Shown here: positions 2,922-53,181 of the stretch, piece by piece
How positions within the stretch are numbered: the first letter of the stretch is position 1
Layout of the letters: each line of letters opens with the position of its first letter
The notes under the pieces: model-generated
The model's input: only the letters and a program-made list of their open reading frames with translations
Database searches by the model: none
What the model was told of the DNA's origin: nothing
NCBI GenBank assembly: GCA_963727625.1
Contig: CAVSHR010000002.1
Coordinates: 96,001 to 160,000 of the forward strand
DNA length: 64,000 nucleotides
DNA from: an uncultured delta proteobacterium
Lineage (GTDB): Bacteria > Desulfobacterota > Binatia > UBA9968
Direction: 5' to 3'
Translations under genes and position numbers: made by a program

Positions 2922-3545
2922 ATGAAAACCCGGCTTTCGCTCTTATTGGCAATCATCGTTATCTCGCACGCCGCGGCTGGCTGCTCGACGACTTCGCCGA
3001 TCATCAGTGAGTGGCGCAACCCGGCCTACATTTCCGGCTCCTTCAAACGTATCATGGTTGGAGCCCTGGGCTCAGACACCAGCATCCGGCGGAATTTCGA
3101 AGACGAGTTTTCGCTTCAACTTCGCGCCTCCGGCATCGACGGGATGCCGAGTTATCGCTATGTTGCCGAAGATGAAAAGATCGACGAAGCCAAGCTCAAG
3201 CAAGCGGCAATGAATGCCGGGGCCGACGCGCTGATCTTTGCCCGTTCGATTCAAGTCGAGCAGAAAACTCAGTACGGACCGGGCTATTTGCCCTACACGT
3301 CCTTCGGTATCTTCGGTTCCCATGTCGGCGCCACTTGGCAAGGTTTGGGCGGAACCGCGACGGTATACCGCTACAACGAATATATGTCGGAGACGACCCT
3401 GTTGGACTTGACGAAAAACGAGGTGGCGTGGACGGGCACGATTAAAACGGCGGAGCCGGACGACGTGCGGGCTGCGATCAGATCGTACGTTCAAGCGGTC
3501 ATGAAGGCGCTCGAAACCCAAGATCTCGTACGGACCCGCCAGTAA
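2922..3545 (+). CDS. Hypothetical lipoprotein (DUF4136-like)
   Basis: Signal peptide ending AAGC (lipobox-like); RRNFEDEF motif. Confidence 0.6.
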   Translation: MKTRLSLLLAIIVISHAAAGCSTTSPIISEWRNPAYISGSFKRIMVGALGSDTSIRRNFEDEFSLQLRASGIDGMPSYRYVAEDEKIDEAKLKQAAMNAGADALIFARSIQVEQKTQYGPGYLPYTSFGIFGSHVGATWQGLGGTATVYRYNEYMSETTLLDLTKNEVAWTGTIKTAEPDDVRAAIRSYVQAVMKALETQDLVRTRQ

Positions 3546-3666
3546 TACAGTGAAGCATAAGAAATTCATTCAGCGCGGCAGAGTCTCGACTCGAAACTCA
3601 TGCTTGACTCGGGCGCAGGATCGGCAGTAAGGACGGCAAATCATATCGAGTAGATAGGAGGATCTG

Positions 3667-4182
3667 ATGCCGCGAATTGCGCTGGACTTAAACAATGCCG
3701 AAGATCGTCGCAAGCTCAACGGGGAATGGCGCCTGGGACCGGGTCTAGTGCCCGGCGCACCCAACGAAGGATTGACTGCGCAACTATTGAATACCCCCGC
3801 TCGCTTAACCGATTATGACGACTCGATCTGGGAAGTCTGTCCCAACATCCGCAAAAGCATCTCCAAGGGGTTCACCTTCGCGTGGTACCGCATCAAGGTG
3901 GAGCTGCCGGAACAAGCGAACGGCATTGCCCTGGCGGGATATCGCGTCTGGTTCGAAACCAACTTCGACAACTATGGAGAGGTCTGGATCGACGGCAGAA
4001 TCGACCGCGCGACGGGCGTGATCGTCGGCATCAACGCGCCCCATCGCGTGGAAGTTAGCGCTAAAGCGGTGCCAGGTACGAAACATGTCATCGCTTGCCT
4101 GGTGGCCAACGGCCCGCTGGCGGAGCCGCGCGGCGGCATTTATATCCGTTATGCTACTCTCGCCTTTGAAGCTGCGGGGTAA
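3667..4182 (+). CDS. Hypothetical protein, galactose-binding-like beta-sandwich (GH2 N-terminal-like)
   Basis: LNGEWR, FAWYRIKV, DNYGEVWIDG; AGGAGG RBS. Confidence 0.55.
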   Translation: MPRIALDLNNAEDRRKLNGEWRLGPGLVPGAPNEGLTAQLLNTPARLTDYDDSIWEVCPNIRKSISKGFTFAWYRIKVELPEQANGIALAGYRVWFETNFDNYGEVWIDGRIDRATGVIVGINAPHRVEVSAKAVPGTKHVIACLVANGPLAEPRGGIYIRYATLAFEAAG

Positions 4183-6319: not shown

Positions 6320-7201
6320 ATGCCGTTTAGCTACGTCCAGTTCATGACCGAGTTGATGGCGCCGCAGCCCTATCCGCGACAGCCCAAATTTGCGCCGCCG
6401 CGGCTGGCGCCGTTGCGCAAGCCGATCGACCAAGCGACCATTGGTATTTTCACCAGCGCGGGGATCCAGGTGCGCGGCGACACTCTGTTGGCCGAGACCA
6501 ACGATCTTGCTTATCGCCTGATCGATCGTGACACCCCGTATTCGGAACTTACCATCGCGCATCAGACGCCGGTGCGAAGCTGGGCGCTCGACGACCTCAA
6601 CGTCGCCTTTCCGCGCGACCGGCTGATCGAGCTCGAAGCCGAAGGCACGATCGGTAAACTGGCGCCGAGAGCGGTTTCCATGGTGGGATCTATTTCAAAG
6701 TTTACCGAGCTGATAAAGACCGCGGTGCCGCGCATCAAAGCAGAATTCGACGCTCAGGGCGTCGATCTGGTTTTTCTTTTCCCCTTCTGACCGGCCTGCC
6801 ATCGGTCCGTTGGACTGATCGCAAGGGCGCTTGAAGCGAGGGGAATGCCCACGCTGTCGATGAGCACGCTTTGGGAAGTCAGCATGGCCTTCAAACCGCC
6901 GCGCACGCTCTTCTTGGATTTTCCGCTCGGCTGTCCGGCGGGCAAGCCGAACGAGCCTGCACTGCAGCGCGACATTTTGCGCGCGGCGCTGGCGGCGGCG
7001 CCGGATTTCGACACGCATTGGAAAATTGTCGAGCTGCCGTTTCAGTGGTCGGCGGACGGCAGCCGGTACTGGGAAGAGGAAGTCAAAGAATTATATCGCA
7101 GAGGCTTGGGCACGGTCAGACGTCACGTCGCCGACCATCAGGCGGTCGGGGAGCCGCTGCTCGATCAGGAGACGGAATTCTCGCTGCGCTGCCAATGCTA
7201 A
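6320..7201 (+). CDS. Selenoprotein of glycine/sarcosine/betaine/D-proline reductase selenoprotein B (GrdB/PrdB-like) family; Sec codon TGA 6788-6790
   Basis: ORFs 6251-6790 and 6845-7201 are in one frame; readthrough gives VDLVFLFPF-U-PACHRSVGLIARALEARGMPT; N-part has IFTSAG and DLNVAFPRDRL, C-part PPRTLFLDFPLGCPAGKP; AGGAG RBS before ATG 6320. Confidence 0.88.
6795..6826 (+). promoter_or_regulatory. Putative bacterial SECIS hairpin
   Basis: ATCGGTCC-GTT-GGACTGAT (6801-6819): 8-bp stem with one G-U pair and G-first apical loop 18 nt after the TGA; extendable by CCTGC/GCAAGG. Confidence 0.65.
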
Positions 7202-9489: not shown

Positions 9490-11169
9490 TCATTTTTGCG
9501 CCCTAGCTTTGCGCCGGCCGATGGCCGCTTCGGCGCGCGGGCTGATCGCGCGTTCCACGGCGATGTTCAAAAGCGCCGGCTTGCCGGACGCGAGGGCCCG
9601 CTCAAGCGCGGGTCTGAGGTCCGCAGGCCGCTCGACAAATTCGCCGTGGCCGCCGAGGCCCTGCACCATTTGGTCGTAGCGAGTCTGCAGCAAGTCCGTT
9701 GCGACCGGTCGGCCGTAGAGGCCGAGCTGGATCTGCCGGTCGATGCCCCAGGCCGAATCGTTGCCGAGCAGCGCGACGATGTCGAGCTTGTGCCGCACCG
9801 CGGTGTCGAATTCCATGCCGTTGAAACCGAAGGCGCCGTCGCCGGTAAGCAGGAAAACGCGGGAGTCGGGGTAGGCAATTTTCGCTGCCAGCGCTGTAGG
9901 CAATGATGAACCCAACATCCCCAGGCTGGATACGTTGAACCATCTTTTCGGCGTGAGCGCGGGAAGGGTGGCTCGGCCGAAGTGGCAAAAATCGCCGCCG
10001 TCAAACACCAGGCAATCGTCGGGGCGCAGCATGGACTTGAGCGTGTTGTGGACGAACAGGGCGTGCATCGGCACCTTCGGTTGCGCTAATTTGTCCGCCC
10101 ACTCGGCTTGAGCAGCCTTGGCAGCGCGCAATTCATCCAACCAGGGGAGATCCTGCCACCGGTGATTCGCCGCTTCTTCGGTCAGCTGTTTCAAGATACT
10201 GGAGACGTCGCCGACCAGGCCGACGTCGACGCCGCGGTTGCGGCCGATTTCCAATGGCGAAGGATCGACTTGAATGATCTTGGCGCCGGCGGCGACGTGA
10301 GGCGGACGGCAGAAACCGATCGTGAAATCCTGCTTGCGGCCGAGCAGCAGGATCACGTCGGCGTCGCGCACTTTGGTCGCGGCGCGATTCAAACCGCGCT
10401 CGAAATAGCCGAAGGCGTAGGGGTGATCGTCGGCGATCAAGCCACGCGACTGTTCTTCCGTGACGATCGGCAGACGCGTGGTTTCGACGAAGCTCTGCAT
10501 TGCTTGGCCCGACAGCGTGTAGCCGGCGGCGCTGCCGGCGATGACCAGCGGTTTTTGCGCGCGGTGCAATATCGCGATTGCCCGACGCACCTGTTCGGGG
10601 TCGCCGAGTTGTTTTGCTCTGGGCCGGTAGGCGTCGGCTTCGGTAAACACGACGTCGTCTTCCTCGACGCTGCGCTCCTGGACGTCGACGGGAATCGTCA
10701 GATGCACCGGGCCGCGCCGCCCGCTGAATGCCAAGCGCATGGCGCGCGCCACGAACTCGGGGATTCTTTTGACGTCGTCGACCATGAATGACCCCTTGCA
10801 CATGGGCCCGGCCATGCCGACTTGATCGATTTCTTGTTGGCCGCCGCGTCCGAGGTCGTGGGTGTCGGCGCAGCCGGCGATCGAAATGACCGGACCTTCG
10901 GTGTGCATCGCGTTGGTGAGGCCGGGAATGGCGTTGGCGAATCCCGGCGTGGTGTACATGCATACGCCGGGCTGCTCGGTCATGCGCCCCCAGGCATCGG
11001 CCATGTGAACGGCGGCTTGTTCATGGCGGGTATCGATGATGCGGAAGTCCTGGTCCGCCATCACATCCAAAATCGGCAGGATATGATCGCCGGCCAGCGC
11101 AAAGATATTCTTTACGCCTTCGAGCTTGAGCGCTTTGCAGACGAGGTGACTGCCGGTGACTTTCGCCAT
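9490..11169 (-). CDS. Thiamine pyrophosphate-dependent enzyme (acetolactate synthase/2-hydroxyacyl-CoA lyase-like)
   Basis: RHEQAAVHMADAW, GDGAFGFNGMEFDTAVRH; GGAGG RBS. Confidence 0.88.
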   Translation of the reverse strand: MAKVTGSHLVCKALKLEGVKNIFALAGDHILPILDVMADQDFRIIDTRHEQAAVHMADAWGRMTEQPGVCMYTTPGFANAIPGLTNAMHTEGPVISIAGCADTHDLGRGGQQEIDQVGMAGPMCKGSFMVDDVKRIPEFVARAMRLAFSGRRGPVHLTIPVDVQERSVEEDDVVFTEADAYRPRAKQLGDPEQVRRAIAILHRAQKPLVIAGSAAGYTLSGQAMQSFVETTRLPIVTEEQSRGLIADDHPYAFGYFERGLNRAATKVRDADVILLLGRKQDFTIGFCRPPHVAAGAKIIQVDPSPLEIGRNRGVDVGLVGDVSSILKQLTEEAANHRWQDLPWLDELRAAKAAQAEWADKLAQPKVPMHALFVHNTLKSMLRPDDCLVFDGGDFCHFGRATLPALTPKRWFNVSSLGMLGSSLPTALAAKIAYPDSRVFLLTGDGAFGFNGMEFDTAVRHKLDIVALLGNDSAWGIDRQIQLGLYGRPVATDLLQTRYDQMVQGLGGHGEFVERPADLRPALERALASGKPALLNIAVERAISPRAEAAIGRRKARAQK

Positions 11170-46655: not shown

Positions 46656-47168
46656 CTATTTCGGCACCGGGACGACCGTGCCGCATTTCTTGCAGGTGCG
46701 CAGTTTTTCGTCGCTGGAAAATTTCGCGTAAACCTGCCCCACCGGGTCGGCGCGATAATCGCCGACCTCGGCGGAGGTCTCGTAGACTTTCTCGCCGCAT
46801 TGATTGCAAAACCACTTGAAGTAATCGATCTCGCCCGCGCGGCGCTTGCGCTCGAAGACGATGAACCAGGAGTTTTCTTCGAGCCGCGGCGAATGCGGCA
46901 CGCCGGCGGGGCAGAGCAGAGTTTGGCCGGCTTTGATGTCGGCGGTATGTTCCTTGCCGGCTTCATCGCGGTAGACCAGATGCTGCACGCCGGTGAGTTG
47001 CAACGTCACTTCATCCGCCGGATCGACGTGAAAGTCCCAGCGCTCTTTGCGCCCGCTGCTCAAGAACGCGATGGACTCGGAGTCCTGCCAGAGCACCCGG
47101 CGGGTTTTGCCTTCGGCTTTAACTTCCTCGATCACGCCGGTGACATCGATGGGGACGAGCTCTTTCAT
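46656..47168 (-). CDS. 3-hydroxyanthranilate 3,4-dioxygenase-like cupin
   Basis: RWDFHVDPADE, PAGVPHSPR, ERKRR, WFCNQC and RTCKKCG rubredoxin-like Cys pairs. Confidence 0.78.
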   Translation of the reverse strand: MKELVPIDVTGVIEEVKAEGKTRRVLWQDSESIAFLSSGRKERWDFHVDPADEVTLQLTGVQHLVYRDEAGKEHTADIKAGQTLLCPAGVPHSPRLEENSWFIVFERKRRAGEIDYFKWFCNQCGEKVYETSAEVGDYRADPVGQVYAKFSSDEKLRTCKKCGTVVPVPK

Positions 47169-47285
47169 GCAAGAACTATAGCGCTTTCAAAAGTGAAGGA
47201 GCAAGCATTGGATGCAACCGCAAGATGGTTTGGGCGATCTGTATTATTTTGTTGCTTTTTCTAAATGGCTCTATAGAACTCCTTC

Positions 47286-47585
47286 ATGGCGAATTATCGC
47301 ATCGATGTGACCGACGAGGCAAAGTCGGATCTCACTCACTATACCGCGTTTGAGCGGAAACTTGTCGTGTCGCAGATTCGCGAGCAGCTTACGCATGAGC
47401 CATCGGTCGAAACCAGAAACCGGAAATCACTACGGGACAATCCTATCTCGACTTGGGAACTCCGGATTGGCAAATATCGGGTCTTCTATGAGGTTGATGA
47501 GGCGCCTCCTTCAGTTCGTGTTGTGTCTGTCGGTCATAAAGAGCACAATATGCTATTGATACGGGGCAAAGAGGTTCGGATATGA
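47286..47585 (+). CDS. Type II toxin, RelE/ParE family
   Basis: YRIDVTDEAKSDL, ETRNRKSLR, WELRIGKYRVFYEVD, VGHK. Confidence 0.85.
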   Translation: MANYRIDVTDEAKSDLTHYTAFERKLVVSQIREQLTHEPSVETRNRKSLRDNPISTWELRIGKYRVFYEVDEAPPSVRVVSVGHKEHNMLLIRGKEVRI

Positions 47586-47854
47586 AAACGATCGATATGG
47601 GGAAAGAGAAGTTTGACTTGACCGACGTCATTAAAATCGCGCGCCAAGAACCGGTGTTAATTGTCGCGCCGGATGGTAGCGAGTTTTGTTTGGCTGAAGC
47701 CGATGACTTCGAAAAGGAAATAGCCGCCTTGCGCGGTAGTCAGGCTTTTCAGAAATTCCTCGACCAGCGCTCTGCGAGCGCGAAAACCTATGCCCTCGAC
47801 GATATTGAAGCAGAGATTGACAGAGAACTTTCAATTCAGCGCAAAGACTCCTAG
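47582..47854 (+). CDS. Putative cognate antitoxin (Phd/YefM-like)
   Basis: 4-nt overlap with toxin; MKTID, ARQEPVLI, acidic C-terminus. Confidence 0.7.
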   Translation: MKTIDMGKEKFDLTDVIKIARQEPVLIVAPDGSEFCLAEADDFEKEIAALRGSQAFQKFLDQRSASAKTYALDDIEAEIDRELSIQRKDS

Positions 47855-47910
47855 CAAAATCTCCGCTCCCTCTCGCCCTGCTCGATAGTCGTGTTCACAG
47901 AGCCGTTTGT

Positions 47911-48117
47911 TTGCAACGTTCCTTCATCCGCCGGATCGACGTGAAAATCCCACCGTTCTTTGCGCCCGCTGCTCAAGAACGCGATCGATTCGGAGTCCTG
48001 CCAGAGCACTCGGCGGGTTTTGCCCTCGGCTTTAACTTCCTCGATCACGCCGGTGACATCGATGGGGACGAGCTCTTTTATGCAAGAACTATCGCGCTTT
48101 CGAAAGCGGTGGAGCAA
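47911..48117 (-). pseudogene. Duplicated 5' end plus upstream region of the 3-HAO-like gene (direct repeat of ~46998-47204)
   Basis: KELVPIDVTG...FHVDPADE identical in protein; start codon ATG changed to ATA; truncated after ~55 codons. Confidence 0.88.
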
Positions 48118-48267
48118 TAGAGTCTTGATGTCAATCTAGTTGCTTTTTTCACATGGTAACAGCTTAAAACTTCGCCTTCGTAAATTCTTTCTATAGTTGC
48201 CTTTTCGACCAGATCTAAGTATGCGATAAGGGATTTTCCGGAGCCTAGTATTGTTCGTATTGCGACT

Positions 48268-49685
48268 ATGGCCGATCATGTTTTTATTTGTTACGCGCGT
48301 GAGGATGCGGATTTTGTACTCCCCCTTGCGAGAGCTTTGAAGGAACGTAAGATCTCGGTTTGGTTGGACCAATGGGATATACCTCCGGGTTCGGACTGGG
48401 ATCGGTCCATCGAAATGCGATTTACGACTGTGCCAAGTTCATCATTGTCCTATCCAATCTTGCCGTGGATTCGTCCGAGGTCCGCGGTGAGTTACGCACC
48501 GCTATCGACGAAAAAAAGCCGGTCATACCGGTAATTCGCGCGCCATGCCGAGTTCCGCGCCAACTCCGAACTATTCAGCACGCAGATTTTTCTTCAAAGA
48601 AGCCGGACGACGAAGCCGCTTTAAGACAATTGTTACGCACGCTGGAAGTCACCACAGCTTTGACGGCCGAGCAAGCCGAGAAAATTGGCACTGAGCGAGG
48701 CTCCGGAGGCTCAGAGCCAAATAAACCGGAGGCCACCTGGTCCCGGAAAGGAGATCCATCGGCGCTCAGTGGCTATCTTCGCGCGATTTCTTCCGGTCAC
48801 AATTTACACATGGCTTTTGCCGGGGGTATAGTTGCGGTTGTAGTGATCTGGTGGTTCTGGCCACCCGCGCAACACCCGCACCTCCCGCCAGCCCCGGCGG
48901 TGCCGGCAGAATCAGTTAAATCTCCTTCCACGGTCACAGGATCTAAGGAACCGAGCGCCGTGGTTGAGAAGCCGATTGCCGGTCCGGAAATGGTTGTCAT
49001 CCCCGCCGGCACGTTTCAGATAGGCGATCAGCAGGGGAAAGGCGCCAAGGACGAAGTGCCGGTCCATTCCGTGCAATTCAGCAAGCCATTTGCTGTGAGC
49101 CGCTTCGAAGTGACCTTCGATGACTACGACGTATTCGCTAAGGCGACAAAGCGAAGATTCCCAAGCGATCAAGGTTGGGGACGCGGTCGGAGGCCTGTGA
49201 TCAATGTGTCGTGGGAAGATGCCCAAGCGTACGCAAAATGGTTGTCAGAGCAAGCAGGTAAGCGATATCGTTTGCCGACGGAGGCCGAGTGGGAGTATGC
49301 GGGGCGAGCCGGGAGCAAGACGGAATACTGGTGGGGCGATACTATTGGCCGAGGGCAGGCGAACTGCGACGGTTGCGGCAGTCAGTGGGATAACAAACAG
49401 AGCGGCCCCGTTGGATCGTTTAAGGCAAATTGTTTTGGGCTGTTCGACACCGCGGGTAACGTATGGGAATGGGTCGAGGATTGCTGGCATGACAACTACA
49501 ACGGCGCACCGATTGATGGCCGAGCGTGGAAAGCTGAGAACGGCGGGAGGTGCGGCCGTCGTGTGATCCGCGGCGGCTCCTGGGACAACGATCCGGTGTC
49601 CCTGCGATCATCGTTCCGCGGCAGGGACCTCGCCGACTTCCGGTTCAACTTCATCGGTTTCCGTCGCGCCCAGGACTTAAATTGA
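48268..49685 (+). CDS. TIR - linker - TM - FGE-sulfatase (C-type lectin fold) protein, frameshifted at 48413-48415
   Basis: HVFICYARED...VWLDQWDIPPGSDWDRSIE joins NAIYDCAKFIIVLS..SSEVRGEL if one A is added; TM GGIVAVVVIWWFW; RLPTEAEWEYA, GNVWEWVEDCW, RGGSW..IGFR. Confidence 0.82.
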
Positions 49686-49730
49686 TCTTTGTTCTTTGCC
49701 CTTTTACCCTTTGGGTTTTTGGGTGCCAGT

Positions 49731-49762
49731 CGTTCCAATCGTTCAAGCCGTTCAAAACGTTC
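49731..49762. repeat. 9-bp-period GTTC(C/A)A short-repeat element
   Basis: cgttccaat cgttcaagc cgttcaaaa cgttc. Confidence 0.7.
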
Positions 49763-49921
49763 GGCACTCGTGATGCGGGTTGCGAATACCCCGTTACCAG
49801 TCTTCGAATCTGATACCGTACGGCTCGCTCGGAGGTGGTTCGTTGACAACAGAGCACCAGGGGAGCAGGATTTATGCATCGGATGATCGGGTTCGACGCG
49901 AGCTAAACGTGAGGGGAATCG

Positions 49922-50428
49922 ATGGGTAAGTCAAAAAGCGTATTTGTATCTTTTTCCCGTCGCGATGAAGCCGCGGCTCGGAGCCTTATCGATGAATTGC
50001 GCCGCCATGAATTTTCCGTGTCGGACGGAGTGGGGGATTTCAAGGCAGATGCGGAATGGCAGCAGGCAGTGGAGAAGGCCATCCGGTCCGCCGATGCCGT
50101 GATTGTGATTCTCGGAGGCAAAGCAGAGCCGACCAAGTATCAGGAACTTGAATGGAGCGTGATCCTGGAATCGCATTGGGCCGATTCCAAAAAGTTGTTG
50201 ATCCCAGTGTTGCTCGGTGACGCCGACCTTCCAAGTTTCTTGGCAAGTTTTCAACCGCTGCACCTGCCTGATGCAACTGGCGGTTGGACCCCTGTAATAC
50301 AAGCTCTGCAAGGCCAAGTTGTGAAGCCAGAGCCAATTTTCGTCAAAGATACCGCGAAACTTAGGGAGCGTTTAAAGATCGTCGAGGAATTCGCCCAGCG
50401 CATCAAAAAAGATGACAACGTCTGGTAA
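49922..50428 (+). CDS. Stand-alone TIR domain protein
   Basis: VFVSFSRRD, AIRSADAVIVIL, YQELEW (putative catalytic Glu), LIPVLL. Confidence 0.8.
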   Translation: MGKSKSVFVSFSRRDEAAARSLIDELRRHEFSVSDGVGDFKADAEWQQAVEKAIRSADAVIVILGGKAEPTKYQELEWSVILESHWADSKKLLIPVLLGDADLPSFLASFQPLHLPDATGGWTPVIQALQGQVVKPEPIFVKDTAKLRERLKIVEEFAQRIKKDDNVW

Positions 50429-50434
50429 CGAAAC

Positions 50435-51055
50435 GTGGCGCAGAGTAATCTCCCGGTCGATCCCAATCAATCGGTTTTCATAAATTGTCCATACGACGCT
50501 GAGTTCGCTCCCCTTTTCGATGCCATAGTGTTCGCTACGGTGTGCTGCGGCTTTGTGCCAAGAAGTGCGCTTGAATCGGGCAGCGTTGCAGAACCTCGCA
50601 TGGAGCGGATCACGAGGACGATTTTCTCGTCCAAGTATTCCATCCATGATCTATCCCGCTGCAAGGGTGAGGGCAGCGAACAGTTGGCGCGGTTTAACAT
50701 GCCGCTTGAACTCGGCATCGCCATTGCCCGGCGCTATACTCAAACCGATGAAGCGCACAAGCATGACTGGTTGCTATTAGTTCCGCAGGGACATCAATAC
50801 GGCCGGTTTGTTTCCGACCTCGCGGGCTTTGATCCAAAACCGCATGACGGAACTGTGAAGTCTATCGTTCCAAAAGTCATGTCCTGGCTGAAAACTCGGC
50901 CTGATGCGGTGCAAACGCCGGAACCGCCGGAGGTATTGGACGCGCTGCCGAACTTCGTTCGAGCAAAATCGGCCCTGGAGCAGGCGTGGAACAACGACAT
51001 CCCGTGGGGCGACATCTTATTAGCTGCGAAAGGACATGTGCCTGAAGCGAGTTGA
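50435..51055 (+). CDS. Conserved hypothetical protein, TIR/nucleoside 2-deoxyribosyltransferase-like fold (inferred)
   Basis: VFINCPYD, SKYSIHDLSR, RFNMPLELG, SDLAGFD. Confidence 0.6.
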   Translation: MAQSNLPVDPNQSVFINCPYDAEFAPLFDAIVFATVCCGFVPRSALESGSVAEPRMERITRTIFSSKYSIHDLSRCKGEGSEQLARFNMPLELGIAIARRYTQTDEAHKHDWLLLVPQGHQYGRFVSDLAGFDPKPHDGTVKSIVPKVMSWLKTRPDAVQTPEPPEVLDALPNFVRAKSALEQAWNNDIPWGDILLAAKGHVPEAS

Positions 51056-51112
51056 CTTGATTCCCCAACCGCGAGGATGATAAGTCTCGGGTAATTCAAA
51101 TCGGAGGTACGT

Positions 51113-51904
51113 ATGGCCGAGCGAGTTTGGGAAAAATTTCTCACGGAACAAGACAAAGCAACGTTGGTCGGCAAAGCCGACCGGCGCGTCGGATTCGGCG
51201 AGCGGCCGGCGCTGTTGTTGATCGATCTTTACCGCTGGGTGTTCGGCGATAAGCCGGAAGCCGTCACCGAAGCGATCAAGACCTGGCCCGGCAGTTGCGG
51301 CCTCGCCGGCTGGAATGCGCTTCCTTATATCCAAAAACTCCTCGCCAAGGCACGCGAGGTCGGCATTCCGATTATCCATGTTACCGGCATGGACGGAGTC
51401 GCGGTCGAGCCCTGGGCATTTCGGCGCGACACCAAAAAGCGCGCGACCATGTCGAAAGCGGAGCTCGATCGCTTTCGCCGCCGCTATGACATCGTCGATG
51501 AAGTGAAGCCCGTTCCGGGAGAGACCGTTTTCAAGAAAGTCTCGCCGAGCGCGTTCTGGGGCACGCCGCTGGTCGGCCATCTCAATTTTCTCGGCGTCGA
51601 TACGATCATCACTTGCGGCGAGAGCACCAGCGGTTGCGTGCGCGCCAGTGTCGTCGACGGCACGACCAATCGTTTGCGCATGGTGGTGGCCGAGGAGTGC
51701 GTGTTTGACCGGCACGAAGCCTGCCATGCGATCAATCTTTTCGACATGAATCAGAAATACGCCGATGTGCTGCCGCTCGATGAAATCATCAAATACCTCG
51801 ACGGTTGGCGCGCCGAGAAAGCCGGGCAGGTCGGTTACGCGAACAATAGTATCGAGTATTTAAAAGATCTCGGTATCGGCGAAGAGTACAAGGGGCTGCG
51901 CTGA
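51113..51904 (+). CDS. Isochorismatase-family cysteine hydrolase (maleamate amidohydrolase-like)
   Basis: PALLLID, KVSPSAFWGT, GESTSGCVRASVVD, NLFDMNQKYADV. Confidence 0.88.
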   Translation: MAERVWEKFLTEQDKATLVGKADRRVGFGERPALLLIDLYRWVFGDKPEAVTEAIKTWPGSCGLAGWNALPYIQKLLAKAREVGIPIIHVTGMDGVAVEPWAFRRDTKKRATMSKAELDRFRRRYDIVDEVKPVPGETVFKKVSPSAFWGTPLVGHLNFLGVDTIITCGESTSGCVRASVVDGTTNRLRMVVAEECVFDRHEACHAINLFDMNQKYADVLPLDEIIKYLDGWRAEKAGQVGYANNSIEYLKDLGIGEEYKGLR

Positions 51905-51912
51905 CGCAGCTT

Positions 51913-51992
51913 GTTCAAAGTTCAACGTTCAAGCGTTCAAGGTCAGTTGGACCGGCGTCCGTCCTTGAACGTTGAACCTTTGAACCTTGAAC
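51913..51992. repeat. Inverted 7/8-bp-period GTTCAA/TTGAAC repeat element
   Basis: gttcaaa gttcaac gttcaagc gttcaag ... cttgaac gttgaac ctttgaac cttgaac between convergent genes. Confidence 0.75.
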
Positions 51993-51999
51993 GCAAGTT

Positions 52000-53181
52000 T
52001 TAGCCCGACCGATCTCCGGCCGGTTGTCGTCTCAAGCCAAACCAAGCCACTAGAAAGACCGCCGCAGACAACGCCGCCATGGCGTGAAAGCCCAATTCAT
52101 AACCGAACGACTGCACCAGCGTGCCGGCGATCAGCGGTCCTAGGCCGTTGCCGAGCGACGTGGAGGCGCGGGTCAAACCGAGCGCTAGCGCTTTGGCATT
52201 GCCGCCGGCGGATTGTAAGGCAAAAGTCGTGGCGCTCACGTTGGTATAACCGAAACCCATTGTCATGATCGCCAGCGGCAGGACCAGCGTTAAGGCGCCG
52301 GAGGCGTAGGGCTGCAAGAGAAACATCGGCACGCCGATGCCGACGCCGAGCAAGATCACGCGCGGCGCGGTGATGCGGTCGCAGAGCCAGCCGCCGGTGT
52401 ATCGTCCGAAGGTGTCGGTGATGCGCGAGATCGAAACCATCGTGCCGACCCAGTCCAGGCCGAAGCCGCGCTGCTGCACGGCGAGAAACGGAAACGCGAT
52501 CCGAGTCACGCCGACCAACATGACGAACGACTGAAATATCGCCAGCGCGGTGGTGAGAAACCAAGTTTGGCGCAGCAACTGCTTGCCTTCGCTCCACAAC
52601 TGGACGGTGCGCTCCTGGGTGACTTCGCGGGAGCGGTGCGCGCCGGCCAGAAACAACAGAATCAAGCCGGCAACCTGTGGCAATAGGTAGAGGACGAAGA
52701 GAGCTTCCGGTCCGAAGACCTTGCCGACGAAGCCGCCGGTCAGCGGGCCGACCGAAAAACCGATGCCGAGCGCGGCCGCGACCTGGCCTTGGGCGCGGCC
52801 CTGTTGGCCCGGCGCGGACTGTTCGAAGGCGATTTTACGGATCGACAGGGCGAACATCGCCTCGGAGATGCCCAAGAGCGTAAAGGCACCGAGGAACACG
52901 AAGTTAAGCTCGAGAAAAAAATTCGCCAGGAGGCTGATCGCGATCGCGCTTAAGGTGGCCGCGACGATCAGCACGCCGGAGCTGAAATAGGAAGCGAGCA
53001 CGCCCGACATCAGGTCGGAACAAACCCGTCCCATGCCGTTGACGAACAGCGGCACGCTGGCAAACGCGATCGAATAGCCATGGGCCTTCATGAAAAACGG
53101 CGCCAGCATGGCGGCGCCGGAAGAGCCGGCGATTTCGACCACGGCGGCGAGCGAGATGAGCGTCAACGGCGCGAGTTTCAT
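52000..53181 (-). CDS. MFS transporter
   Basis: ~12 TM segments, GGWLCDRI, GRAQG motifs. Confidence 0.85.
   Translation of the reverse strand: MKLAPLTLISLAAVVEIAGSSGAAMLAPFFMKAHGYSIAFASVPLFVNGMGRVCSDLMSGVLASYFSSGVLIVAATLSAIAISLLANFFLELNFVFLGAFTLLGISEAMFALSIRKIAFEQSAPGQQGRAQGQVAAALGIGFSVGPLTGGFVGKVFGPEALFVLYLLPQVAGLILLFLAGAHRSREVTQERTVQLWSEGKQLLRQTWFLTTALAIFQSFVMLVGVTRIAFPFLAVQQRGFGLDWVGTMVSISRITDTFGRYTGGWLCDRITAPRVILLGVGIGVPMFLLQPYASGALTLVLPLAIMTMGFGYTNVSATTFALQSAGGNAKALALGLTRASTSLGNGLGPLIAGTLVQSFGYELGFHAMAALSAAVFLVAWFGLRRQPAGDRSG

Follow-up and report, generated by a model that had tools for sequence, protein, structure and literature searches.

A TIR and FGE-sulfatase domain gene with a probable retroelement-written variable region in an uncultured delta proteobacterium

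The stretch of DNA analysed here, referred to as the window, is 64,000 nucleotides long (positions 96,001 to 160,000 of contig CAVSHR010000002.1, assembly GCA_963727625.1, from an uncultured delta proteobacterium) and carries a gene whose main open reading frame (ORF 48360-49685, + strand, 441 codons) encodes the C-terminal part of a TIR_2 domain, one hydrophobic segment and an FGE-sulfatase domain. The N-terminal part of the TIR domain is carried by a separate ORF (48268-48534) in another frame. The codons at the end of this gene, the variation among its homologues and the retroelement cassettes found beside some of its relatives make it very probable that the gene end originated, at whatever age, as the variable region (VR) of a diversity-generating retroelement (DGR).

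The gene and its features

The features below all lie on the + strand and are given by their positions in the window. In the codon descriptions N is any base and Y is C or T, and the comparisons are with the template repeats (TRs) from which DGRs write their VRs.

48268..48414, + strand: TIR domain, N-terminal half, its frame offset by one base from that of the remaining gene (TIR_2 model of Pfam, positions 1-45, E = 2.8e-15)
48412..48416, + strand: frame junction, a 1-nt offset within a short A run
48414..48635, + strand: TIR domain, C-terminal half, sharing the frame of ORF 48360-49685 (TIR_2 model of Pfam, positions 46-122, E = 1.4e-10)
48804..48860, + strand: single predicted transmembrane segment LHMAFAGGIVAVVVIWWFW (ORF residues 149-167; top 19-residue Kyte-Doolittle window, mean 1.88)
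48984..49670, + strand: FGE-sulfatase (C-type-lectin-like) domain (Pfam PF03781, E = 1.7e-59, model positions 3-254 of 255)
49581..49655, + strand: putative VR core, with 12 codons at AAY-templated positions and five codons of single-adenine type
49584, 49587, 49590, 49599, 49614, 49620, 49626, 49629, 49638, 49644, 49647 and 49650, + strand: the 12 putatively AAY-templated codons
49596 (GTG), 49623 (AGG), 49632 (GCC), 49635 (GAC) and 49653 (ATC), + strand: the five further codons, at which adenines are present in some real TRs or implied by the residue spectra of homologues
49656..49676, + strand: conserved 3' end of the putative VR, in the position of the initiation of mutagenic homing (IMH) sequence; 19 of 21 bases equal the equivalent stretch of the VRs of one related locus (L008, below) in a by-eye comparison
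49683..49685, + strand: stop codon TGA
49686..49725, + strand: C/T-rich tract with a period of ~8 nt, directly 3' of the stop, with a counterpart behind the VRs of DGR-linked relatives

Codons of the variable region and variation in the protein family

An earlier note on this DNA had named 12 codons, at positions where TRs typically encode asparagine, as all being NNC or NNT. This was correct (GAC AAC GAT TCC TTC GGC GAC CTC TTC TTC AAC TTC, 49584-49652; 12/12 NNY, with 11 third bases C and one T), but the start that it gave for the region, 49562, was not, the coding frame running from 49563, one base later. Translated from 49569, the region reads RGGSW DND P VS LRSS F R G R DL A D F R FNF IGFRRAQDLN up to the stop. 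The NNY fraction is 0.497 among the 195 codons of the FGE domain lying 5' of the VR and 0.569 among the 8731 codons in 23 window genes, giving 12/12 NNY a P value of 2.3e-4 or 1.2e-3 respectively, but nine of the 12 are codons for D, N or F, amino acids which have NNY codons only, and both of these unconditional P values thus make the bias look stronger than it is. When the amino acids are taken as given, C is the third base at 8/9 two-fold and 3/3 four-fold codons, for which a hand calculation gave P ~0.009 with the codon usage of the window genes and P ~0.002 with the gene's own usage. Retention of third-base C at this level argues against long drift.

A protein search scored 8000 candidates, 7895 of them with E <= 1e-3, and the counts which follow come from the 120 matches listed. 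Precomputed Pfam annotation places PF13676 in 57 of these 120, so that the TIR-FGE architecture is a common one. The last 245 residues were aligned for the 108 proteins having GFR at most 14 residues from the C-terminus (the other 12 being dropped), and the 12 positions proved to be the 12 highest-entropy columns (3.1-3.9 bits) among the 95 printed (343-437). Lysine, glutamate, glutamine, methionine and tryptophan (K/E/Q/M/W), the five residues for which no NNY codon exists, account for 1-9% at the 12 positions, compared to 20-70% at other variable columns of this alignment. The five further columns behave like single-adenine codons, with R38 W25 G19 at AGG, A46 P37 T6 S3 at GCC, D37 G37 at GAC, I/L/V/F at ATC and E/R/G/V/W/L/Q at GTG. 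Outside the 12 positions, the 15 closest homologues among the matches listed share 72% identity with the window protein, and at the 12 positions themselves the figure is 11%; variation is confined to TR-adenine codons as judged from homologues, not from the host's own population. A VR is recognisable without its TR; the family spectrum reproduces the outcome expected of adenine mutagenesis of AAY, AGG, GAC, ACC and ATC codons.

Cassettes in related loci

A scan of genome contigs based on the family alignment A1 yielded 77 loci, the best of them 53% identical, from organisms including Chromatiaceae, Parabeggiatoa, Thiocapsa, Methylococcaceae and cyanobacteria; the full 10 kb on both sides was available in just 32 of the 77. 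TR-VR pairs, sought as self-blastn repeats in which A (or T) in one of the copies accounts for 75% or more of the mismatches, were found in four of these loci, namely L008 (one TR and three VRs), L027, L030 and L041, and in these 81-100% of the TR-VR mismatches lie at TR adenines. When the reverse transcriptase (RT) and Avd protein of L008 were used as phmmer queries against 5850 ORFs from all loci and the window, matches were obtained in exactly the same four loci, and Pfam finds RVT_1 in all four RTs. Pfam also finds bAvd in L008 together with an nSTAND1-FGE target, a TIR_2-FGE target (384 aa) and a third FGE target, and all 16 mismatches of the TIR_2-FGE target lie at TR adenines.

Same-length TRs have AAY at 10 (L008), 11 (L030) and 9 (L027) of the 12 positions, and so the template repeat guessed in the earlier note, with asparagine at all 12, came close to the real ones; the TRs of L008 and L030 also have AGG at the same codon as the AGG of the window. 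TR-VR homology in L008 stops within the stretch equivalent to 49656..49676. The circumstances which the earlier note had set against its own reading, relatives with neither TR nor RT and no excess variation at these positions, are both contradicted, by the four cassettes among the 77 loci and by the 12 positions being the most variable columns. A single-sequence phmmer search for TIR fusions gave three fused ORFs among the loci and missed the split TIR of the window, being too insensitive for a count.

The codon signature was compared over 59 sites of the same length (exactly 24 residues from W to GFR, with at least 150 open codons upstream), of which 58 come from 53 loci and one is the window; 24 loci contributed none. 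With 12 NNY, 11 NNC and no K/E/Q/M/W, the window VR is in the top 3 of the 59, level with the VRs that have a TR in cis, five of which are of this length and have 10-12 NNY. Eight of the 53 sites with no TR in their flanks also reach 12/12 NNY, the others ranging down to 5/12 with K, E or Q present, and the mean proportion of C at the 12 third positions of these 53 sites is 52%. Third-base C retention separates fresh VRs from eroded ones.

The C/T-rich tract and downstream hairpins

The pyrimidine-rich tract that had been remarked upon after the stop codon is real and is unique in the window: at least 75% pyrimidine over 40 nt together with at least five C[CT]TT[TG] motifs in 60 nt occurs at 8 overlapping positions (49680-49688) out of 127,880 on both strands. 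Such a tract stands behind 11 of 66 FGE-type ORF ends, compared to 2 of 2131 other ORF ends (six-frame ORFs of at least 150 codons, spurious ORFs included), and behind none of the four TRs. Pyrimidine content of the tract rises with NNY count (Spearman 0.40, p = 0.0016, 58 sites, one having been dropped as it had no downstream sequence), and the tract can be aligned across gammaproteobacterial loci, cyanobacterial loci and the window.

Where the cassette is in cis, the order is VR, stop, C/T-rich tract, GC hairpin with T run, avd, RT and TR, the hairpins being CGGCC-GAA-GGCCG in L008, TCGCGC-GTTA-GCGCGA in L030, CCGCC-GTTA-GGCGG in L041 and an 11-bp stem in L027. In L008 there is again a tract with a hairpin behind the second VR (7111-7200) and behind the third (10259-10330), accompanied in the case of the second by the G run and the first ~25 nt of avd, so that whole recipient modules, from VR to avd start, have been duplicated and have given rise to new targets. 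In the cyanobacterial locus L036 (10700-10760) one of two FGE ends retains no more than the 9 initial nt of the tract (CCCTTGGCT), beyond which the sequence is unrelated; this short-tract end has 10/12 NNY and its neighbour with the full tract has 12/12. A close relative of the window protein (P0027, 64% identical) has a C-terminus like a frame-shifted VR translation that runs into the peptide LTLFALCFYPF..., resembling the out-of-frame translation of the window tract, and so it seems to have a frame change in its VR plus the same downstream tract.

Between the tract and the next gene of the window lies a tandem repeat (49730-49762; 3.7 copies of a 9-nt unit, TCGTTCAAA, with 79% matches), which had no counterpart in those downstream regions of the relatives that were inspected. 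The sole Rfam match at 47000-52000, to snoR30, was at chance level (E = 0.88) and was discarded. A limited literature search found, among the papers that it listed, no DGR paper mentioning a pyrimidine tract, and the tract, possibly undescribed, is the one feature here that may be new.

The TIR domain, the FGE domain and the predicted protein

Model positions 1-45 and 46-122 of the TIR domain (PF13676) lie in separate frames. All four homologues tested by tblastn matched the window in two segments, the first on 48268-48414 in frame 3 and the remainder on 48414-49682 in a different frame; the first segment corresponds to homologue residues 1-49, except in P0008, where it is 174-232 and covers 48238-48414. 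The 1-nt offset is either a true frameshift, making this a pseudogene, or an assembly error in a homopolymer. The main ORF retains Glu at residue 44 (E44), conserved in at least 90% of the family (alignment A1), which we take to be the catalytic glutamate of the TIR domain.

Among 60 columns with conservation of at least 90%, the FGE domain departs from the family at 1, the homologue median being 2, and it gives the gene the C-terminal C-type-lectin/FGE-sulfatase fold of DGR variable proteins (PF03781, with TvpA among its PDB relatives). Identity as a true FGE, PvdO, EgtB or GldK enzyme was rejected, the NCBIfam scores being below the curated equivalog cut-offs (PvdO 193.9 bits against a cut-off of 500, GldK 99.9 against 350, EgtB 79.1 against 360). 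A known anti-phage defence system was likewise rejected, since PADLOC and NCBIfam gave generic TIR matches alone for the gene and its neighbours; those of PADLOC were to the N-terminal fragment and the neighbouring TIR gene, with none for the FGE ORF or for the 206-aa neighbour described below.

Search for a cassette in the window

The earlier note had reported neither a template repeat nor a reverse transcriptase nearby, and our searches agree. With 49400-49700 as blastn query, the best match other than the region itself is 25 nt long at 80% identity (E = 0.43) and a repeat search of the window returned none involving this region, so that no cognate TR differing from the VR at TR adenines was found within the 64 kb. 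Pfam finds neither RVT_1 nor bAvd in the 66 ORF translations of the window, and phmmer with the RT and Avd of L008 gave no match among the window ORFs; published remote targets are likewise without a nearby RT (PMC5758913). A degenerate VR/TR pattern, built from the window VR with N at the predicted template adenines, had no match when scanned against the genome contig collection, from which the window's own genome is absent.

Origin and present state of the variable region

The inference first made from the sequence was of a remote or former DGR target, that is, a sensor with a hypervariable region coupled to a TIR domain. This is upheld by the cassettes of relatives, by their same-length TRs, by the 72% versus 11% identity and by the TIR_2-FGE target of L008. 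The last ~120 nt of the gene would be a VR written by a DGR, in a protein predicted to be single-pass and receptor-like, with the TIR domain inside (cytoplasmic), one membrane helix and the C-type-lectin/FGE domain outside, the ligand-binding tip of which the VR would encode. RT and Avd would copy the template-repeat RNA, placing random bases opposite adenines, and the cDNA would replace the VR; randomisation would affect bases one and two in each of the 12 AAY-templated codons and one base in each of about five more, and third bases and every non-adenine position would be left unchanged. The conserved VR 3' end and the C/T-rich tract may label this copy as a recipient, not a donor.

As no cassette lies within 49 kb upstream or 14 kb downstream of the gene, we read it as a non-adjacent target, written in trans by a cassette elsewhere in the genome that serves it now or did so until very recently, and we give this a chance close to, if slightly short of, even. 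A cassette of the kind found in the relatives probably wrote the window copy and may still exist; retained third-base C, an intact FGE domain and an intact tract favour recent writing. A number of observations weigh against it. TR, RT and Avd are all absent within the 64 kb, and 73 of the 77 relatives are without a cassette in the flanks fetched, many with eroded codon signatures, so that orphaning looks common. Pfam and tblastn alike show the TIR domain to be divided at ~48414 by a frame offset of 1 nt. The IMH-like stretch contains a unique R codon (CGC) where the other 107 homologues have L, V or I (alignment column 432, L77 V20 I10 R1, the window being the sole R, in GFRR). No perfect hairpin of 5 bp or more occurs within 160 nt after the window stop, whereas one is present in all four cis loci, and 49660-49800 folds no better than shuffles (z = +1.31). 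A profile hidden Markov model of the tract, built from 13 relatives with the window excluded, scores window 49687-49714 at just E = 0.67, and a chance match at 11109 scores better (E = 0.12); the profile is too short and too low in complexity to reach significance, and the case for the tract hence lies in its position and enrichment, not in alignment statistics. The TIR frameshift, the lack of a GC hairpin and the unique L-to-R change are the points that favour decay.

The VR may instead have been DGR-written once and then orphaned, the cassette being lost from the genome or left behind at gene transfer, the VR frozen and the gene decaying, and this too has a substantial chance, though distinctly less than an even one. 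It would account for the missing cassette, the frameshifted TIR domain, the absence of the GC hairpin seen in 4/4 cis loci and the L-to-R change in the IMH-like segment. The gene also adjoins what looks like a rearrangement scar, with a duplicated gene fragment around a ParE/RelE pair, and the 73 of 77 loci without a flanking cassette, together with the 52% mean third-position C at the 53 TR-less sites, suggest that loss and erosion are frequent in the family; degenerate DGR loci have been described (PMC10907252). An orphaned VR is, however, harder to reconcile with an imprint that is uneroded (11/12 NNC, with the conditional P of ~0.002-0.009 holding under synonymous equilibrium), with an FGE domain conserved as in its homologues and with an intact tract. 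The missing hairpin is weak evidence, given that GC-rich inverted repeats are reported for just 127 of 372 DGRs (PMC5758913), and the frameshift sits in an A run and may be an assembly error. That the gene was never a DGR target we consider very improbable. The R..R....R...IGFR scaffold would then be ordinary to the FGE fold, the exposed positions would be under ordinary diversifying selection and NNY would reflect a preference for D, N and F; the closest solved structure, PvdO (5hha, E = 2e-48), is no DGR protein and yet ends ...RSGNRNNAAPSDRGDWIGFRVAREL, nine of the 12 codons encode NNY-only amino acids and many cassette-less relatives have K, E or Q and non-NNY codons at the 12 positions. 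Such an origin does not, however, predict the codon-level spectra (R/W/G at AGG, A/P/T/S at NCC, D/G at GNC, I/L/V/F at NTC), the rarity of K/E/Q/M/W, which are almost missing, at precisely these 12 positions, the codon-for-codon agreement with real TRs, the tract at FGE-type ends and its absence behind TRs, or third-base C at three four-fold codons.

Two readings of the tract were considered. It might act in cis to specify the recipient sites of one DGR lineage common to gammaproteobacteria and cyanobacteria, marking a C-type-lectin gene end as VR rather than TR and so licensing dispersed genes, the window gene among them, for trans retrohoming, which we think rather unlikely. Alternatively it may be part of a 3'-untranslated or terminator region, for instance a Rho-loading site before a hairpin terminator, inherited with the gene family and with no retrohoming role, a possibility of some weight that we would still not call probable. 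Rho binds C-rich, G-poor RNA, and the cis loci have a GC hairpin and T run behind the tract, like an intrinsic terminator. For the inverted repeats, a terminator role was also weighed by Wu et al. (PMC5758913). A terminator would not explain, however, why a recognisable motif is shared by gammaproteobacterial and cyanobacterial loci when the identity of their FGE domains to the query is just ~40-50%, why the tract is missing behind 4/4 TRs or why its strength follows the DGR codon signature, and no hairpin or terminator-like site follows the tract of the window.

Neighbouring genes

Approximately 216 nt are duplicated at 91% identity (46989-47204 and 47902-48117) directly upstream of the TIR-FGE gene. 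The duplicated stretch spans the 5' end and upstream region of a 3-hydroxyanthranilate dioxygenase gene (46656-47168, - strand), the second copy being a truncated fragment with an altered start codon, and enclosed by the two copies are a gene for a ParE/RelE-type toxin (47286-47585) and a small gene presumed to encode an antitoxin (47582-47854). This arrangement looks like the scar of an insertion or rearrangement.

Directly downstream of the TIR-FGE gene is a stand-alone TIR_2 gene (49922-50428, 168 aa, E = 2.1e-17), followed 6 nt later by an ORF of 206 aa (50435-51055) for which Pfam, NCBIfam and PADLOC gave no match; in Atlas this ORF falls with "hypothetical protein" clusters (score 0.97) and has a weak lead to a TIR-like family (0.85). 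These two genes may be a small TIR-based module beside the sensor gene.

Comparison with known systems

Taken alone, the gene is one more TIR-coupled, DGR-type hypervariable receptor, of a class already described as putative antigen sensors. TIR-bearing and trans or remote DGR targets are already published (PMC10907252, PMC7517822) and the concept is not new; FGS domains have been linked to DGRs in conflict systems (PMC7159879) and remote targets more than 100 kb away are documented (PMC5758913). Should the tract prove to mark recipients, trans targets would be findable from sequence alone, by codon imprint plus tract, and these are a class that RT-centred surveys state they miss, the survey method described in PMC8144416 being blind to remote targets. 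If functional, the tract would also be of use in the search for trans targets and in the engineering of DGR recipients.

In the multicellular bacteria described by Dore et al. (2024), Thiohalocapsa PB-PSB1 and RT clade 5 have conflict-system domains, TIR, CHAT and STAND NTPases among them, joined to C-terminal C-type-lectin/FGE VR domains, and some of the targets are diversified in trans and some loci degenerate (PMC10907252). Those targets are tied to named TRs and their diversity is shown in reads, whereas the window VR is known from its sequence alone. For cyanobacteria, Vallota-Eastman et al. (2020) report 45 targets in DGR loci and 76 remote ones (PMC7517822), the latter being C-type-lectin paralogues outside the DGR locus with the VR near the 3' end and grafted N-terminal signalling domains, including TIR-like ones, as in the window. 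"Remote" is there defined by at least 50% VR identity to a TR of the same genome.

Among solved structures, the FGE-type DGR variable protein TvpA of Treponema denticola (PDB 2y3c) shares the FGE-sulfatase/C-type-lectin fold and the C-terminal VR and matches the window domain at E = 2.8e-11, but it is a lipoprotein with no TIR domain and is far more distant than PvdO. Over the full length of the domain, the solved relative with the best score is PvdO (PDB 5hha, pyoverdine maturation; E = 2.1e-48), which shares the C-terminal scaffold but, unlike the reading given here for the window gene, is not a DGR target.

A close counterpart with a cassette is the TIR_2-FGE target of L008 (5959-7113), from a Methylococcaceae metagenome-assembled genome (JABFST010000372.1), although the best tblastn match in that locus is the nSTAND1-FGE target (3417-4136), 49% identical to the query. 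Unlike the window, L008 has bAvd, an RVT_1 RT and a TR within 1.5 kb, against which the 16/16 adenine mismatches could be counted, and the CGGCC-GAA-GGCCG hairpin behind its tract, and the TIR domain of its target is in one frame. The two genes are alike in having an N-terminal TIR_2 and a C-terminal FGE-sulfatase domain and a VR of equal length and register, and the L008 target ends GFRLAQD and a stop codon, followed by a C/T-rich tract that has CCTTTTACCCTTTG in common with the tract of the window.

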